A stretch of 64,000 nucleotides of DNA from Candidatus Giovannonibacteria bacterium (lineage in GTDB: Bacteria; Patescibacteriota; Minisyncoccia; JACPKW01; UBA11713). The stretch is from NCBI GenBank assembly GCA_016186825.1, contig JACPKW010000006.1, positions 3,191 through 67,190 on the forward strand, read 5' to 3'. The notes under the pieces were generated by a model. It did not search any database, was not told the DNA's origin, and saw nothing but the letters and a program-made list of their open reading frames with translations. The position numbers and the translations under genes are program-made. This document shows positions 633-37,736 of the stretch, piece by piece (the stretch's first letter is position 1; every line of letters starts with the position of its first letter).

Positions 633-989
633 TTAGACCTCAACGTTGCCGGGCGAACTTTCCCATCCCCCCAACAAATGGAGATGAATATGGCCAATGA
701 TCTGGCCTCCTTTCGGACCGACATTAAAAATTAATTTATATCCTTCGAGCCCCTGCCGCTCGGCAATATCCCGCGCAATGCCAATCATTTCTCCCGCCAG
801 AACTAAATCGGAAGATTTTAATTCCTTCACGGAGTCGATATGCTTTTTTGGGATAATCAGGATGTGCACCGGGGCTTTTGGCCTAATATCGCGCACCGCC
901 ATACAGTCAGGGCCTTCAAATACCTTCTCGGCGGGAATTTCTTTGTTCGCAATTTTACAAAAAAGACAGTCCATAGTTTCAATTACCAA
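633..989 (-). CDS. HIT family (histidine triad) protein
   Basis: 118 aa; ...IGHIHLHLLGG histidine triad motif, CLFCKI N-terminus typical of HinT. Confidence 0.85.
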   Translation of the reverse strand: MVIETMDCLFCKIANKEIPAEKVFEGPDCMAVRDIRPKAPVHILIIPKKHIDSVKELKSSDLVLAGEMIGIARDIAERQGLEGYKLIFNVGPKGGQIIGHIHLHLLGGWESSPGNVEV

Positions 990-995
990 TAGAGA

Positions 996-2285
996 CTAGT
1001 TTTTTGCCTTCGTTTTAATGCGGTCGATTACTTTCGGGAAAGGGATGATTTCCTGAACGCCTGAATCCATTTCGCGAATTATGATCGTTCCGTCCATCGC
1101 TTCTTTTTGCCCCAATATAAGACTGAAATCCACTTCTAGCTTCGAAGCAAGGCGAAGCTGCCCGCGAAGCGAGTCCTTTGATAGCGACTGCGCCAACGGA
1201 ATTTTGGCTTTTCTGAATTCTTCGATCAAGCATAAGCTTTTTTTCTTCGCGACTTCTCCGAGCTGGATTAAAAAGACTTTCGGGCGCTTTCCTTCTGCGA
1301 ATCCGTCCTTTTCCTTGAGCAATTCAGAAAGCCGATCCACTCCGAACGCTCCGCCAACCGCAGCCAACGGTTTTCCGGCGAGCAAATCACCCAAATAGTC
1401 ATAACGGCCTCCGCCTCCGATTTCCATTCGTTTCTCTTCGGGAGTTTTTGGCGGAATCACAAATTCAAAAACCGTCCTTGTATAATAATCGAGCCCCCGC
1501 ACCAGGTAAGGATTCAAACTGTAAGGAATTTCTGCGGCATCCATAAAATCAAGCACCTCTTTAAAGTGCGCCTTGCAGTTATCGCAGACATATTCAATCA
1601 TCTGCGGCGCGTTTTTCTTGAGCTCGACACAGCTTTCTTCTTTGCAATCGAGCAAGCGCAATGGATTTTCTTTAAGGCGGCGTTTGCAGTCTTTGCAGAG
1701 ATAATTGACATGCTTTCTATAATAGGCAATCAAATCTTTGCGATAAGCCGGGCGGCATTCCTTGTCTCCAATCGTGTTTAATTCAAGCGCCGCTTCGAGT
1801 CCGAGTTCTTTAAGAATCAAACTGAAGATTCTTATTATAGTAGCCTCTGCAACTGCCAAGTCTTCGCCCAAAATTTCAAGCCCAAATTGTCCGAATTCGC
1901 GAAAGCGTCCCTTTTGCGGCGACTCGTGGCGAAAAAAAGAGCCCACATAGTAAAGCATGACGGGCTGCGGCCAAGAGAGCATGCCGTCTTCAAAATAAGC
2001 ACGCACAATGGGGACCGTGCCTTCGGGACGCAGCGTCAGCTGATCTCCTCCGCGCGTGCGGAATGTATACATTTGTTTTTCAACTATATCCGAAGCCGCA
2101 CCCAAAGACGCTTCAAAAATTTCGGAGTGTTCAAAATGCGGGGTCTGAATTTCCTGAAACCCGTAATATTCCGCAATTTCGCGGCACTTTTCATGAATTT
2201 TTTTGCGGATAAAAAGTTCGTCGCTGAAAAGATCCCGCGTTCCCTTTGGAGTGACTAAAATTTCTTTTTTCACTAGTCTAGACAT
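996..2285 (-). CDS. hisS: histidine--tRNA ligase
   Basis: 429 aa; class II aaRS motifs (GTRDLF, RPEGT, GGGRYD), global HisRS-like. Confidence 0.9.
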   Translation of the reverse strand: MSRLVKKEILVTPKGTRDLFSDELFIRKKIHEKCREIAEYYGFQEIQTPHFEHSEIFEASLGAASDIVEKQMYTFRTRGGDQLTLRPEGTVPIVRAYFEDGMLSWPQPVMLYYVGSFFRHESPQKGRFREFGQFGLEILGEDLAVAEATIIRIFSLILKELGLEAALELNTIGDKECRPAYRKDLIAYYRKHVNYLCKDCKRRLKENPLRLLDCKEESCVELKKNAPQMIEYVCDNCKAHFKEVLDFMDAAEIPYSLNPYLVRGLDYYTRTVFEFVIPPKTPEEKRMEIGGGGRYDYLGDLLAGKPLAAVGGAFGVDRLSELLKEKDGFAEGKRPKVFLIQLGEVAKKKSLCLIEEFRKAKIPLAQSLSKDSLRGQLRLASKLEVDFSLILGQKEAMDGTIIIREMDSGVQEIIPFPKVIDRIKTKAKN

Positions 2286-15269: not shown

Positions 15270-15292
15270 ATTTAAGTTTTTTTAATCTTCGG

Positions 15293-15483
15293 AGGCCATG
15301 GCGGGACTCGCACCCGCGTATAGCGGTTTTGCCCGCCTGCCAGAGCTTGAGGCCTGGGAGGGATTCGAACCCTCGTATATGGGTTTTGCAGACCCATGCC
15401 TTACCTCTTGGCTACCAGGCCATATTTGCTCAGGCCGATTGCGGGCAGGCAGACCGCCGCGTTAGCTTCTTCGCCACATGGCC
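15293..15483 (-). tRNA. candidate interrupted/split tRNA (Gly-GCC-like) whose anticodon loop contains tRNA-Cys
   Basis: 5' part 15448-15483: GGCCATG-TG-GCGA..ACGC-G-GCGGT-CTGCC; 3' part 15293-15330: AA-ACCGC-TATAC-GCGGG-TGCGAGT-CCCGC-CATGGCC-T; acceptor 7/7 and anticodon stem 5/5 complementary; D/T loops non-canonical. Confidence 0.4.
15350..15421 (-). tRNA. tRNA-Cys (GCA)
   Basis: GGCCTGG/CCAGGCC acceptor, loop CTGCAAA, GGTTCGAATCC. Confidence 0.85.
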
Positions 15484-23619: not shown

Positions 23620-23890
23620 AACTTGTGCGCGGGAGAGCCTGCCTGCAGGCAGGGACTTGGTCACGAATAAATTCCTTCTGAATTTTTCTCGACCCCGACT
23701 CGTCTGTTCCGCTCTGCGGAACATGACTCCGGCTTGCAAGTCCTCCCGCAAGTGAAGCAGTTCACTTGCTTCCCGCGACAAAATTGCTTCGCAATTTGTG
23801 CGCGGGAGAGGACTTGCACCTCCACGTCCTTGCGGACACCAGCCCCTCAAGCTGGCCTGTCTTCTAGTTTCAGCACCCGCGCAAATTACA
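23620..23890. other. GC-rich structured intergenic element (candidate ncRNA or repeat)
   Basis: local GC far above flanks; direct repeats TTGTGCGCGGGAGAG at ~23624 and ~23806; palindrome CCTGCCTGCAGGCAGG (23642-23657); hairpin GCAAGTGAA-GCAG-TTCACTTGC (23748-23769); ends GTGCGCGGG / CCCGCGCA can pair. Confidence 0.3.
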
Positions 23891-30787: not shown

Positions 30788-31246
30788 ATGTTAAGAGATA
30801 ATCGTTCATTTTTTGAAAAACTTACTGGCTCTACTCGTATGGATGAGGAAATCACTAACGAAGAACCGCAGGCAGAACTCGCGAGATCCAAAGGCGAGTG
30901 GCTTACCTCCGATGAAGAAGGCCAGCTTACAGTAGATGTCTTCCAGACTCCGGATGAAATTATAATCCAGTCTACTGTGGCAGGCGTGAAACCTGATGAA
31001 ATGGATGTATCAATAACGCAAGATATGGTAACGATCAAAGGAAAAAGGCAGAGGGCGCATGAAGTTACAGAAAAAGACTTTTTCTATCGCGAACTGTATT
31101 GGGGGACATTCTCTCGCTCCATTCTTTTGCCCCAAGAAGTGGACGCTGACGCCGCAATAGCTAGTTTGAAAAATGGCCTGCTTACAGTTCGGCTTCCGAA
31201 ACTAGACAAATCCAGAACGCAGAAACTGAAAGTGAAAATGGAATAG
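30788..31246 (+). CDS. Hsp20/alpha-crystallin family small heat-shock protein
   Basis: 152 aa alpha-crystallin domain. Confidence 0.85.
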   Translation: MLRDNRSFFEKLTGSTRMDEEITNEEPQAELARSKGEWLTSDEEGQLTVDVFQTPDEIIIQSTVAGVKPDEMDVSITQDMVTIKGKRQRAHEVTEKDFFYRELYWGTFSRSILLPQEVDADAAIASLKNGLLTVRLPKLDKSRTQKLKVKME

Positions 31247-31248
31247 TA

Positions 31249-31293
31249 ACACAAAACTAAAATTGCCCATGATGGGCAATTTTAGTTTTGTGT
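31249..31293 (+). terminator. perfect 22-bp-arm palindrome (hsp20 terminator)
   Basis: ACACAAAACTAAAATTGCCCAT-G-ATGGGCAATTTTAGTTTTGTGT, directly after the stop codon. Confidence 0.6.
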
Positions 31294-31389
31294 GCCGCGG
31301 GGGTGATCGGTCACATGTTGGCTTCGCCACTCGCGACCCCGCCTCGCGGTCGCCTCCGGCGACATCGCTCCGGCTTTCGATTCACCACG

Positions 31390-31477
31390 CGAGCGAAGCA
31401 GTTCGCTCGCTCCCACGGCAAAATTTCTTCGCGCGAGCGAAGCAGTTCGCTCGCTCCCACGGCAAAATTTCTTCGAA
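31390..31477. repeat. 2 x 44-nt tandem repeat each with GCGAGCGAA-GCAG-TTCGCTCGC hairpin
   Basis: two identical units in tRNA-Phe trailer; not CRISPR (only 2 units, no cas). Confidence 0.6.
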
Positions 31478-31482
31478 ATTTG

Positions 31483-31554
31483 TGCCGCGGGGGTGAATCG
31501 AACACCCGACGCCTACCTCTTCAGGGTAGCGCTCTGCCACTGAGCTACCGCGGC
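31483..31554 (-). tRNA. tRNA-Phe (GAA)
   Basis: GCCGCGG acceptor, loop CTGAAGA; 3'-end 22-nt segment duplicated at 31291-31313. Confidence 0.85.
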
Positions 31555-31636
31555 AATAAAAAAAGTATAAATGATCAAAAATTTTATATCAAACTCAAGG
31601 AGGGCAACCCAAAAAACTTTTGAATTGCCCTCTCAA

Positions 31637-32205: not shown

Positions 32206-32322
32206 ATGCGCAGTATTCTTGAATTAGTCCGAACCCCGGTAGTAAAGCAAAGCTTACTACGGGGCACGGCGCATTTCGCCGCCTGCGGCGGCGAGCCTGC
32301 CTGCCGGTAGGCAGGTTTGGCG
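32206..32322. repeat. island repeat module copy (hairpin motif + CCTGCCTGCCGGTAGGCAGG palindrome) immediately downstream of paralog P1
   Basis: GCAGTATTCTTGAATTAGTCCGAACCCCGGTAGTAAAGCAAAGCTTACT..GGGG shared with 35183-35260; palindrome shared with 35443-35462 and R repeats. Confidence 0.55.
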
Positions 32323-33021: not shown

Positions 33022-33083
33022 AAAATTTTAGCAAATCCCTTTTGGTTCGTATTGATAAAAATTTAAGTCAATGATTAAAAAAT

Positions 33084-33206
33084 TTTTCTTTTCCCCAAAA
33101 TTAAAATATGGTTCGAGCCGACCCGCCTGCATCAGCTATGCTGAAAGCATTGCGGGCAGGTGTTTTTCTATGGGTTCTTTACCTACCGGCAGGCAGGTTT
33201 GGCGGC
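33084..33206. repeat. R repeat copy R1 (5'-leader/intergenic module)
   Basis: TTTTCCCCAAAATTAAAATATGGTTCGAGCCGACCCGCCTGCATCAGCTATGCTGAAAGCATTGCGGGCAGG..CCTACCGGCAGGCAGGTTTGGCGGC; near-identical to 33972-34095 and 37383-37500. Confidence 0.6.
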
Positions 33207-33336
33207 ATTCAATCAAAAATTCGTAGAGCGAATACTTAAAGAATATAAGATTATGACAAAAATTTCAATTTCAAAAAAAGTACGAGCCCCAAGCAGAATT
33301 GAATTCCACGAGGGGCTCGAGTGGTCACCGACGCCG

Positions 33337-33819
33337 TTAGGCGAAGATTTCGGTGGCGTAGCGCTTGGAAAAGAAACGGAACTTGATCCGGTCGAGCATG
33401 GTAAGCGTCGCCTTGCCCCACCGCGCGAGGTTCACGAACACGGTGCCGTCGTTCGAATCCATGAAGTCCTTGAACTGGTAATCCACCGGGTCGCCCTTGT
33501 GGAACTCGAGGACGACGTCCCAGCCGTCCTCAATCGCCTGCATGCCAGTGAATATGCCACAGCGAGTGGTACTGCTGAACTGGATGAACTTGTCGCCCTG
33601 CTCGCTAGTCATTCGAACATCCACCATCTCGCACATCGCGCCGTACTTGCGGATCGCCTCGTCGATCGAGATCGTCCGCCCCTTGCCGGGAGCCCACCGC
33701 AGACCCGCCAGTTGTCCATCGTCGTAGATGTTCATCTGGAAAAGCGGCATAGGGTGACCCTTGAGGTTGAGAAACTCCTGGGCCTTCTTGAGCCCGCCGA
33801 GTGTAGGTTTGTAACCCAT
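33337..33819 (-). CDS. GC-rich foreign hypothetical protein (160 aa) occupying a paralog slot
   Basis: local GC ~60% vs ~40% genome; strong SD GGAGGG 7 nt upstream of ATG; own terminator GAGCCCC..GGGGCTC+T7 at ~33262-33305; balanced aa composition whereas + strand ORF 33160-33993 is antisense-like. Confidence 0.55.
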   Translation of the reverse strand: MGYKPTLGGLKKAQEFLNLKGHPMPLFQMNIYDDGQLAGLRWAPGKGRTISIDEAIRKYGAMCEMVDVRMTSEQGDKFIQFSSTTRCGIFTGMQAIEDGWDVVLEFHKGDPVDYQFKDFMDSNDGTVFVNLARWGKATLTMLDRIKFRFFSKRYATEIFA

Positions 33820-33971: not shown

Positions 33972-34170
33972 CTTTTCTTTCCCCCAAAATTAAAATATGG
34001 TTCGAGTCGACCCGCCTGCATCAGCTATGCTGAAAACATTGCGGGCAGGTGTTTTTCTCCAGGTTCCCTGCCTACCGGCAGGCAAGTTTTGCGGTTTTTA
34101 TCAGCGCGAACATCTTTATCATATCACAAACAACATTCCTTTCCCAATCTGGTGCAGTATTCTTGAATTA
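33972..34170. repeat. R repeat copy R2
   Basis: same module as R1/R5 plus tail ..CTGGTGCAGTATTCTTGAATTAGTCCGAACCC. Confidence 0.6.
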
Positions 34171-34447
34171 GTCCGAACCCATTTCGCCGCCGCACCGATA
34201 ACAATTTTCCTTCAACTTCGTTCAGGATGGTGAGCTTGCCGAATCAACAAGTTTTTCTTCTTGACCTGAGCTTATCGAAGGTTGGAGGCAGGAGTTATTT
34301 ACTGACTCACAACATGTTAACTACAATATCTTTCTGTTTATTAACATGTCCAACACAAGGCATATAGTGGTGATCAGTGATCTAGTTCTCCGATAACTCC
34401 TTCAATTTTTTATATTTAAGTTCTTTCGGTATGTGCGTAATTATAGA

Positions 34448-35260: not shown

Positions 35261-35477
35261 TGCTTGCCCCGTACCAATCCTAAGCAAGAACTCGGCAATG
35301 GTAGTATGTAAGCCGAAGGCGATATCGCGAGATAAACTTAGATTTTAGAAGCGATATATTTGGGATTGGTGCGGGGACAATTTTCCCGCCGCATATTTAA
35401 AATTTTAGAAGGCGGGATCCCGTTAAAAACGGTGACAAGTTTTTCCCTGCCTGCCGGCAGGCAGGTTTGGCGGCAAA

Positions 35478-36126: not shown

Positions 36127-36296
36127 CTTTTCTTCCCCCAAAATTAAAATATGGTTCGAGCCGATTGTTTTAACGGGTTCTATGCCTACCGGCAGGCAAG
36201 TTTTGCGGTTTTTATCAGCGCGAACGTCTTTATAATATCACAAACAATGTTCCTTTCTAAACTGGTGCAGAATTCTTGAATTAGTCCGAACCCATT
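36127..36296. repeat. R repeat copy R4 (internal deletion variant)
   Basis: CTTTTCTTCCCCCAAAATTAAAATATGGTTCGAGCCGA..CCTACCGGCAGGCAAGTTTTGCGG..CTGGTGCAGAATTCTTGAATTAGTCCGAACCC. Confidence 0.55.
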
Positions 36297-37382: not shown

Positions 37383-37560
37383 TTTTTTCCCCAAAATTAA
37401 AACATGGTTCGAGCCGACCCGCCTGCATCAGCTATGCTGAAAACATTGCGGGCAGGTGTTTTTCTCCAGGTTCCCTGCCTACCGGCAGGCAGGTTTTGCG
37501 GTTTTTATCAGCGCAAACGTCTTTATAATATCACAAACAACATTCCTTTCTAAACTGGTG
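37383..37560. repeat. R repeat copy R5, fused at its distal end to a tRNA 3' half
   Basis: same module as R1/R2; ends ..AAACTGGTG|CCCCCGCCAAGAATCGAACTTGG. Confidence 0.6.
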
Positions 37561-37736
37561 CCCCCGCCAAGAATCGAACTTGGATCTACTCCTTACCTGC
37601 CCACCGTTGCCTGCGCCCTCGGCAGGAATCGAACCTACATCTAGGGCTTAGAAGACCCCTATTCTATCCATTGAACTACGAGGGCAACTTAGGCAGGTGG
37701 GGAAGGGAGCTATTCTATCCGTTGAACTACAGGGGC
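37556..37736 (-). tRNA. candidate interrupted/split tRNA (Arg-like body) whose anticodon loop contains tRNA-Arg(TCT); CCA encoded
   Basis: 5' half 37701-37736: GCCCCTG-TA-GTTC-AACGGATA-GAAT-A-GCTCC-CTTCC; 3' half 37556-37592: AA-GGAGT-AGAT-CCAAG-TTCGATT-CTTGG-CGGGGGC-A-CCA; acceptor 7/7 (one G.U), anticodon stem 5/5 (one G.U); canonical D and T loops. Confidence 0.45.
37614..37685 (-). tRNA. tRNA-Arg (TCT)
   Basis: GCCCTCG/CGAGGGC acceptor, loop CTTCTAA, TTCGATT T-loop. Confidence 0.85.

Follow-up and report, generated by a model that had tools for sequence, protein, structure and literature searches.

A candidate family of small, structured elements inserted behind tRNA genes in Patescibacteria

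We analysed a 64,000-nt stretch of DNA from a Candidatus Giovannonibacteria bacterium (assembly GCA_016186825.1, contig JACPKW010000006.1, positions 3,191-67,190; hereafter the window), in which a 190-bp insert lies immediately 3' of a gene for tRNA-Phe. We propose, with a probability of roughly 55%, that this insert belongs to a family of short, structure-dependent and non-autonomous elements without coding capacity, which target the T-loops and 3' ends of tRNA genes in Patescibacteria and leave the tRNA unbroken. We do not regard the insert as a scar, because the family is conserved and multi-copy, and its stems show compensatory changes across phyla.

An insert between tRNA-Phe and its terminator

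The tRNA-Phe(GAA) gene (31482-31554, minus strand; detected by ARAGORN and by Rfam model RF00005 at 66.4 bits) is intact and encodes no CCA. The GC-rich insert (31291-31480) is associated with a direct repeat of the tRNA 3' end that extends from C56 in the T-loop to 2 nt beyond the discriminator, and thus comprises the last 18 nt of tRNA-Phe followed by CA. The proximal repeat (31481-31500, minus strand) carries tRNA positions C56-A73 and CA, and the distal repeat (31291-31309, minus strand) carries the same positions with one T deleted. In the sense of the tRNA the repeat reads CGAT(T)CACCCCCGCGGCACA, with 19 of 20 positions matching and a 1-nt deletion, and its exact core, TGTGCCGCGGGGGTGA, is found at 31291-31306 and 31481-31496. 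A first-pass annotation of this locus had placed the repeated tRNA 3' end 170 nt downstream; the repeat is indeed present, at a measured spacing of 190 nt from start to start, with 174 nt between the repeats. No further copies of TGTGCCGCGGGGGTGA were detected in the window with up to three mismatches, a tolerance at which 0.21 would be expected.

The G+C content of the insert (0.56-0.68 in 100-nt windows, compared to 0.43 for the whole window) bears out its earlier description as GC-rich, and none of the open reading frames in it resembles a real gene. Reading away from the tRNA on the minus strand, the insert begins with a hairpin, h (AATTTCGAAGAAATTTTG, 31463-31480), which we count as part of the element because a homologous h follows tRNA-Leu in the window and tRNA-Thr in locus L027 (loci outside the window are given L numbers). 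A 44-nt unit, consisting of half of h, a strand resembling the 5' side of the acceptor stem and a hairpin that we call P2, is perfectly duplicated in tandem (31388-31475, minus strand; 2.0 copies, 100% identity). This agrees with the two identical units reported earlier, each holding the hairpin GCGAGCGAA-GCAG-TTCGCTCGC, for which 100 shuffles gave 0 matches. The acceptor-5'-like strand, GCCGTGG (31413-31419, second copy 31457-31463, minus strand), pairs at 7 of 7 positions with the acceptor 3' strand of tRNA-Phe, one of the pairs being G.U. P2 is a 9-bp stem with the loop CUGC (31389-31410, second copy 31433-31454, minus strand).

The duplicated units are followed by a segment comprising the 5' strand of the T-stem and the complement of the whole T-loop (TGGTG AATCGAA, 31376-31387, minus strand). 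The inverted copy of the T-arm had been located at 31373-31387, which was about right: GGTGAATCGAA, the complement of TTCGATTCACC in the T-loop and T-stem, is exact at 31376-31386, and at 83% identity the inverted copy stretches to 18 nt (31369-31386). It proved, in addition, to belong to a 19-nt complement of the whole tRNA 3' end. The remainder of the insert is a conserved three-way-junction domain (31310-31375, minus strand), made up of AGCCGGAG (31368-31375), a hairpin P3 (31345-31367), AGGCGGGGTCGCGAG (31330-31344), the tip of a second hairpin, P4 (GGCGAAGCC, 31319-31329), and the 3' strand of P4 (ACATGTGAC, 31310-31318), all on the minus strand. Beyond the distal repeat is a bidirectional terminator, a hairpin with two 22-nt arms of 100% complementarity (31250-31292), that serves both tRNA-Phe and the convergent Hsp20 gene (30788-31246).

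Comparison with related loci showed that many metagenome contigs with an identical tRNA-Phe 3' end keep ValRS, PrsW and Hsp20 in this order and have tRNA-Phe convergent on Hsp20. In five syntenic relatives (L174, in which ValRS is 74% identical, L081, L160, L085 and L107) the terminator comes directly after tRNA-Phe, and the gap between the tRNA and the Hsp20 stop codon is 42-66 nt, the size of one bidirectional terminator. The corresponding gap in the window is 240 nt and consists of the same kind of terminator plus the 190-nt insert. The site is thus empty in the syntenic relatives, and the DNA bracketed by the repeats was truly inserted, between tRNA-Phe and its native terminator. More broadly, about 95 of 108 metagenome loci with an identical tRNA-Phe 3' end and enough downstream sequence had nothing except a terminator behind tRNA-Phe. 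The junction sequences expected at this locus are TTCGATTCACCCCCGCGGCACACAAAACTAAAATTGCCC for the empty site and GTGACCGATCACCCCCGCGGCACAAATTTCGAAG for a tandem or circular form.

Of the two options raised in the first-pass annotation, that of a miniature non-autonomous element fits. The annotation would have been contradicted by relatives sharing the identical arrangement without any larger element, together with the 44-nt unit acting only as a conserved terminator; instead, the relatives lack this arrangement, and we rejected the 44-nt unit as an intrinsic terminator, as it forms a G+C-rich hairpin with no T-run after it.

Population data for the tRNA-Phe copy came from Logan contigs, followed from both sides in a search for empty-site or tandem junctions. 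One of these, L005, spans the element with only one 44-nt unit, so that either the copy number of the unit is polymorphic or the assembly collapsed the repeat. Contigs encoding the identical Hsp20 end at 31320 in four samples, which shows that there is some variant at that point; a plain sequence variant would explain the break as well as an excised or joined-end form would. The places where contigs stop, at 31320 and at the end of the tRNA, allow more than one reading, because this tRNA-Phe is common to many species and a variant may lie at 31321.

An intron in the tRNA was also considered and rejected, as the upstream tRNA is already complete. At another locus, L092, the tRNA-Phe gene has a group I intron (986-1221, minus strand; RF00028, 79.6 bits), which the tRNA-Phe gene of the window lacks, and a stretch of about 250 nt homologous to this intron lies upstream of the 3' part of the tRNA in more than 20 other metagenome loci.

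A family of elements behind tRNA genes

A BLAST comparison of the insert with the window, along the lines of a check put forward in the first-pass annotation for the whole genome, identified a related sequence behind tRNA-Leu(GAG) (23798-23882). This second family member (23623-23795, minus strand) has its parts in the same order as the tRNA-Phe copy, and its tRNA-specific parts match tRNA-Leu. On the minus strand it contains h (23779-23795), the acceptor-5'-like strand (23772-23778), P2 (23748-23769), the anti-T segment (23735-23746), AGCCGGAG (23727-23734), P3 and P4 (23660-23726) and a distal repeat (23653-23659 and 23623-23637) that is split by an extra hairpin (23638-23652). A profile search with nhmmer gave no third copy in the window, and elements are found behind 2 of its 17 tRNAs.

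We then scanned one genome per species with a pattern derived from the two window copies (GAACTGCTTC, a spacer of 17-19 nt and AAGCCGGAG). This yielded 61 loci, about 23 of which are genuine copies, the remainder being chance matches in coding DNA. With few exceptions, the genuine copies sit immediately 3' of a tRNA gene and share its orientation. The genuine copies occur in records named Parcubacteria, Yonathbacteria, Taylorbacteria, Moraniibacteriota, Saccharibacteria and Patescibacteria, with a few in records labelled Elusimicrobium, Bdellovibrionales or Verrucomicrobiota, some of which labels look doubtful. The host tRNAs of these copies are those for Arg, Gly, Val, Ser, Met, Cys, Thr, Trp, Leu, Pro and Ala; upstream of the copies in L014, L028 and L059, no tRNA was detected by ARAGORN. 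The nhmmer profile detected extra copies behind other tRNAs in the same records, several per record in some cases. In total, the family comprises at least 30 copies besides the two in the window, behind at least 12 kinds of tRNA, in Patescibacteria and in records labelled Elusimicrobium. Orthologous copies are kept across species in two groups, L032/L039/L050 and L006/L013.

The copies with unusual labels are those in L009, L014, L028, L050, L055, L020, L059, L061 and L067 (Bdellovibrionales, Verrucomicrobiota, Elusimicrobium, and one contig filed as viral). In L050 the locus with tRNA-Leu and tRNA-Val is laid out like those of the Moraniibacteriota L032 and L039, and some labels may therefore be binning or naming errors. 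The Elusimicrobium-type copies (L059, L061 and L067) form a distinct subfamily among cellular genes. We also observed a second class of element behind tRNA-Phe in metagenomes (L089, L138, L187 and L129), with an uninterrupted inverted T-arm and a different interior, in which the distal repeat and a motif of the GGGUCGG type (GGGGUCGG in L138) are still present.

Shared architecture

Read in the sense of the tRNA, all copies follow one plan. The tRNA is followed by hairpin h, which is often terminator-like and has motifs common to unrelated loci. Next come a strand that repeats the 5' acceptor sequence of that same tRNA, a linker of two nucleotides (GA or AA), the 9-bp hairpin P2 with its CUGC loop, and then a single G. 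The 5' strand of the T-stem and the complement of all seven T-loop bases then lead into AGCCGGAG, the variable hairpin P3, CGAGGCGGGGUCG-N-GA, the variable hairpin P4 and GUGAC, and the element closes with tRNA sequence from C56 to the discriminator and slightly past it. Within this plan the three-way-junction domain is conserved (AGCCGGAG, GAGGCGGGGUCG and GUGAC), and the apical part of P2, GAACUGCUUC, is invariant in 20 aligned copies, this string having itself been the search pattern, while the lower stem of P2 covaries.

Together, the acceptor-5'-like and anti-T segments are the reverse complement of the last 19-20 nt of the tRNA. In most copies P2 divides this complement exactly at the junction of acceptor and T-stem, where the D and anticodon arms leave a real tRNA, and the three-way-junction domain occupies the place of the T-loop. 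A second copy in L036 is without P2, and its complement is uninterrupted.

The left edge of the direct repeat is C56, right after GTGAC, in nearly all aligned copies. The position of the right edge varies, and the repeat is 15-60 nt long overall: roughly half of the copies have this edge 0-3 nt beyond the end of the tRNA, and in the other copies the repeat continues for 22-60 nt into a partial second unit that contains h and sometimes more. L027 carries 2.25 tandem units of 175 nt, L067 carries an array, and partial extra units are present in L006, L020, L029, L032 and L067. We considered a target duplication that includes native flank and rejected it, since the long repeats are partial extra units and the h motifs are common to unrelated loci. 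Among 21 copies the distal repeat diverges by 5.6% and is perfect in 13; the internal complement is less exact (15% divergence), with some of its mismatches still compatible with G.U pairing.

This architecture bears on the possibility that such inserts are by-products of replication that arise with no enzyme and no dedicated element, a terminator palindrome having been extended by template switching and then modified by slippage at short repeats. The tRNA 3' end, h and the inverted copy do form, in many copies, a long quasi-palindrome around a terminator-like hairpin (as in L007, L014 and L055), and slippage clearly acts, as seen in the 44-nt duplication. However, errors of this kind cannot explain a homologous domain (AGCCGGAG, GAGGCGGGGTCG and GTGAC) together with P2 behind unrelated tRNAs in different phyla, and we consider this origin very unlikely.

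An extra hairpin, CCTGCC...GGCAGG, interrupts the distal copy at the same point in three cases, namely the tRNA-Leu element of the window, L098 and L140. The window also has a separate, short palindrome (CTGCCTGCCGGTAGGCAG, with variants) that resembles REP-type repeats. Its seven sites fall between 23.6 and 37.5 kb (23638-23652, 32297-32314, 33179-33196, 34068-34085, 35447-35464, 36182-36199 and 37475-37492), where 0.04 matches would be expected. One of these sits within the distal repeat of the tRNA-Leu element, and the hairpins of L098 and L140 at the same position are similar to it. A sequence of about 100 nt is also repeated at 33071-33239 and 33997-34233 (plus strand), flanking the 33337-33819 open reading frame; the two stretches have near-identical spurious translations (MVRADPPASAMLKALRAGVFL... 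and MVRVDPPASAMLKTLRAGVFL...), and each holds one palindromic repeat.

Covariation and matching to the neighbouring tRNA

In every family member the internal segments are tailored to the tRNA beside which they lie. On average 15.3 of 19 positions pair with the 3' end of the neighbouring tRNA, compared to 11.4 of 19 with other tRNAs. We then examined covariation in an alignment of 20 copies with a six-helix structure, using slid pairing partners and 500 shuffles as controls. In this alignment 86.1% of cells are paired, compared to 35-42% in the slid controls, and changes on both sides of a pair affect 26 pairs and 138 cells, a level reached by 0 of 500 shuffles. All seven pairs of the acceptor helix, and five of nine in the T helix, change on both sides. 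In P2 all 180 cells are paired and covariation is seen at six pairs. In P4, where 97% of cells pair, one G.U is invariant; because P4 shows 29 G.U against 1 A.C, the folding strand is that of the tRNA sense. The minimum-energy fold of the window copy gives the same helices (z = -5.6). Orthologous copies (for example L032 and L039) show compensatory changes, and have wholly different P3 stems with the same loop, as would not be seen in a decaying scar.

These results largely refute the reading of the insert as an inert scar, in which fused attL and attR sites would remain, functionless and decaying, after an integrase-bearing island or prophage at tRNA-Phe had lost its interior. The direct repeat of the tRNA 3' end does begin in the T-loop, the classic footprint of integrases that cross over there; relatives have empty sites; and simple scars exist nearby, both in other loci (L137, L150, L186 and L157) and as tRNA fragments behind tRNA-Cys and tRNA-Arg in the window. 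On the other hand, the family is conserved, with compensatory changes between species and phyla, the same internal plan stands behind at least 12 kinds of tRNA, and an inverted copy of the cognate tRNA end would not be expected in a scar. Nor was any large repeat-flanked island detected among about 110 tRNA-Phe loci, or any integrase in 40 open reading frames of the window or near the copies. The remnant left after element loss, the other option of the first-pass annotation, thus gives way to a conserved, multi-copy family whose stems stay paired through compensatory changes across phyla, and we put the probability of a scar very low.

The simple scars offer a comparison at tRNA-Phe itself. 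In L137, L150, L186 and L157 the gene is followed, after 21-22 nt, by a partial tRNA-Phe copy of about 35 nt that starts in the variable loop and continues to the 3' end, and has neither the inverted copy nor the structured domain, as in an ordinary scar. In the window, the fragment 3' of tRNA-Arg(TCT) (37613-37685) at about 37556-37612 (minus strand) resembles a tRNA 3' half that differs from tRNA-Arg, with the T-arm CCAAG TTCGATT CTTGG, the acceptor strand CGGGGGC, discriminator A and an encoded CCA, and is possibly a plain attachment-site remnant. At about 15291-15348 (minus strand), 3' of tRNA-Cys (15349-15421), a partial second tRNA-Cys runs from the anticodon loop to the 3' end (GCAAAACCGC...GCGGGTGCGAGTCCCGCCATGGCCT); it has a different acceptor and looks like a simple scar without the folded element. 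A 'tRNA-SeC' that ARAGORN calls here overlaps tRNA-Cys and seems spurious.

The fold did not correspond to a structured RNA that we could name. Rfam 15, which includes self-cleaving ribozymes, gave only chance-level matches to the window element up to E = 10; no family for the element reached its gathering score in the scan of the whole window; and the copies in L013, L032, L092 and L138 gave nothing consistent, a weak match to Chlorobi-1 on L032 alone looking like chance. Inspection of the junction sequences revealed none of the core motifs of hammerhead, twister or HDV-like ribozymes, and these were rejected. The idea that one strand or the other holds a second tRNA or a pseudo-tRNA was likewise rejected, as ARAGORN finds none and there is no 7-nt anticodon loop. 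Two features of tRNA-like RNAs, the elbow between T-loop and D-loop and the 3' CCA, are missing; the window copy has no CCA.

Transcription and a possible host function

A promoter-like site, TTGATA-17-TATACT (31564-31592, minus strand), lies upstream of tRNA-Phe. A terminator scan of the locus gave sites at 31250-31292 and 31600-31632 only, with none at P2, and there is no terminator-like site between tRNA-Phe and the element. Because the promoter-like site precedes the tRNA, and the sole terminator-like site downstream follows the element, a single transcript is predicted from the sequence to cover both, which would make the element in the window the 3' trailer of the tRNA.

Predicted co-transcription raises the possibility that the element is a structured RNA of benefit to its host, an acceptor/T-minihelix non-coding RNA released from the tRNA trailer, kept by selection and spread by homologous recombination after DNA uptake. 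It could act as a processing signal for RNase P or RNase Z, or as a decoy or regulator of an enzyme that recognises this tRNA by its acceptor end. Such a role agrees with the covariation and with a branch point placed exactly where a tRNA branches. Orthologous copies are retained across species with compensatory changes (L032, L039 and L050), and the tRNA-Leu copy is fixed, identical and unbranched in four Logan samples. The window also encodes type IV pilus genes of the DNA-uptake kind, which are linked to competence. Against this, the element is carried by only about 10% of identical tRNA-Phe genes and, in the window, by only 2 of 17 tRNAs; close relatives differ in whether they carry it, and gene context is not conserved. 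Tandem, partial and degenerate copies look selfish, and terminators stand ahead of many copies. We therefore consider a host-beneficial RNA somewhat unlikely.

Proposed mechanism and its alternatives

We favour a mobile, non-autonomous element. The sense strand would fold into a mimic of the acceptor/T-arm half of the cognate tRNA, fused to the three-way-junction domain, with the acceptor helix and an extended T helix formed by the internal complement and the distal repeat. A trans-acting enzyme may recognise this fold and insert the element at C56 of the matching tRNA gene; insertion would regenerate or duplicate the tRNA 3' end, so that the tRNA stays intact. The 44-nt duplication was probably a later slippage event. 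As the route of insertion, our tentative first choice is site-specific recombination in the T-loop on a folded substrate that resembles an attachment site, because of the fixed junction at C56, the intact tRNA, the units stacked beside the tRNA, and the size of the element.

The main alternative route is RNA copy-back, in which a processed, tRNA-like RNA would anneal by its 3' end to the nicked T-loop of the cognate tRNA gene and be copied by a reverse transcriptase encoded in trans. The precise 3' junction (GTGAC|C56), and the strand-specific structure with its invariant G.U in P4, agree with this route. So does the internal 19-20-nt complement of the tRNA 3' end, which resembles a retroviral primer-binding site. 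In L066, L129 and L138 the distal copy has a CCA that is absent from the gene. However, with only 3 of about 24 copies showing it, and L007 showing the reverse, we considered this signal too weak to indicate reverse transcription. Neither the 40 open reading frames nor the DNA beside any copy yielded a reverse transcriptase, and there is no series of 5'-truncated copies, partial units being located on the distal side instead. Moreover, P2 interrupts the complement, which simple copying of a tRNA cannot produce. Retro-insertion is in our view unlikely.

A more speculative and rather unlikely extension is that the element is a programmable homing module of less than 200 nt and without genes, whose folded transcript or single strand carries the complement and a sense copy of the last ~20 nt of the tRNA gene as a split guide to the T-loop and 3' end of that gene. 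A host enzyme, or one encoded in trans, that normally reads the shape of tRNA would insert the element, and the guide would be re-matched on each new tRNA. If this were true, the element would be a nucleic-acid-guided mobile element, and a new class of structured RNA or DNA specific to bacteria with very small genomes.

Several observations weigh against the mobile element that we favour. A Pfam scan of 40 open reading frames in the window (the long ones judged real) detected housekeeping proteins only, with no integrase, transposase or reverse transcriptase; no enzyme lies beside any copy, and no protein recurs next to about 24 family copies. Together with the ~110 tRNA-Phe loci, this leaves the integrase proposed earlier with no direct support. 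Pattern scans of IMG/VR gave no phage-borne copies, the one array found being on a contig filed as viral that has cellular-looking genes. Searches with blastn against phage and plasmid records gave no match, and no autonomous relative was found. Logan contigs, in which the breaks are ambiguous, gave no excised or circular form and no recent transposition event. The favoured reading does not account for the re-matching of three tRNA-specific segments when the element moves to a new tRNA, and the persistence of orthologous copies across species (L032/L039/L050 and L006/L013) could also be explained by a host function.

The nature of the folded molecule is a further consideration of this kind. 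In many copies h, which resembles an intrinsic terminator, parts the tRNA from the element, and transcription would need to read through it. P2 has 0 G.U in 180 cells, and the hairpin tips are often triloops or GCGAAGC. A wobble-free P2 and tips of this kind fit single-stranded DNA as well as RNA. A comparison with attC-like sites, which set the strand specificity of P4 beside the wobble-free P2, was equivocal between DNA and RNA, and there was no linked recombinase.

If the favoured reading holds, a widespread and unnoticed family of miniature elements resides at tRNA genes of Patescibacteria and apparently of some Elusimicrobia. We found no description of such elements in the literature with the limited search tools at hand, and 'undescribed' is thus provisional. 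The family unites insertion targeted to tRNA genes, a strongly covarying fold that is not in Rfam, and mimicry of the neighbouring tRNA locus by locus, and is a candidate for a new structured RNA or a folded-DNA substrate of recombination. It also provides a testable case of a gene-less element that chooses a safe, universally conserved target in genomes with few classical mobile elements. A practical caution for annotators is that assemblies break at tRNA genes with such inserts, which can pass for prophage scars or odd tRNAs.

Comparison with known systems

Attachment sites of tyrosine integrases in T-loops, and the integrase-less derivatives that use them (cis-mobilisable elements and phage satellites), provide the first comparison, as these insert at tRNA 3' ends. 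The shared features are a repeat from the T-loop to the tRNA end, an intact tRNA, tandem accretion, empty sites and a size near that of a bare attP. Unlike such sites, the element has no integrase or autonomous partner that we could find, its interior is a covarying fold with a tailored inverted copy of the tRNA end, and one backbone serves at least 12 tRNAs.

Miniature inverted-repeat transposable elements (MITEs) and REP-like repeats (Correia, RPE, ERIC and REPIN) resemble the element in being non-coding, multi-copy and sporadic, with a length of 130-190 bp and a long hairpin formed by terminal inverted repeats. However, the 'terminal inverted repeats' of the element are the sequence of its target tRNA and vary from locus to locus, so that they could not serve a sequence-specific transposase. 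The element also lacks a short target duplication of constant size (the length of the repeat ranges from 15 to 60 nt, and its right end varies), and location and orientation are tied to tRNA genes.

The attC sites of integrons and the attP of CTX phage are likewise tens to about 150 nt long and conserve structure over sequence. They have a strand-specific fold with a fixed mismatch or wobble and a stem that recreates a target-like duplex, and form arrays beside the target. In contrast, the element is not found beside an integron integrase or attI, has no demonstrated relationship to Xer/dif, and has a tRNA T-arm as its target; the single-stranded DNA form is only a candidate in its case.

Among tRNA-like RNAs (viral tRNA-like structures, mascRNA, the tRNA-like domain of tmRNA and YrlA), an acceptor helix stacked on a T helix and the branch between positions 7 and 49 recall the fold proposed here, and these RNAs also lie beside, or are made from, a longer transcript. 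The element differs in mimicking the neighbouring tRNA rather than a generic one, and in having a three-way junction in place of the T-loop; it has no D loop, anticodon loop, encoded CCA or Rfam match.

Finally, guide segments such as the EBS/IBS pairs of group II introns, the bridge RNA of IS110 and the retroviral primer-binding site parallel the 19-20-nt complement of the target in two blocks, and the additional sense copy means that both target strands are represented in the element. Unlike these systems, the two blocks pair within the element, and no recombinase or reverse transcriptase is associated with it. Its architecture and sequence are unrelated to theirs, and Rfam matches below the gathering score look like chance.

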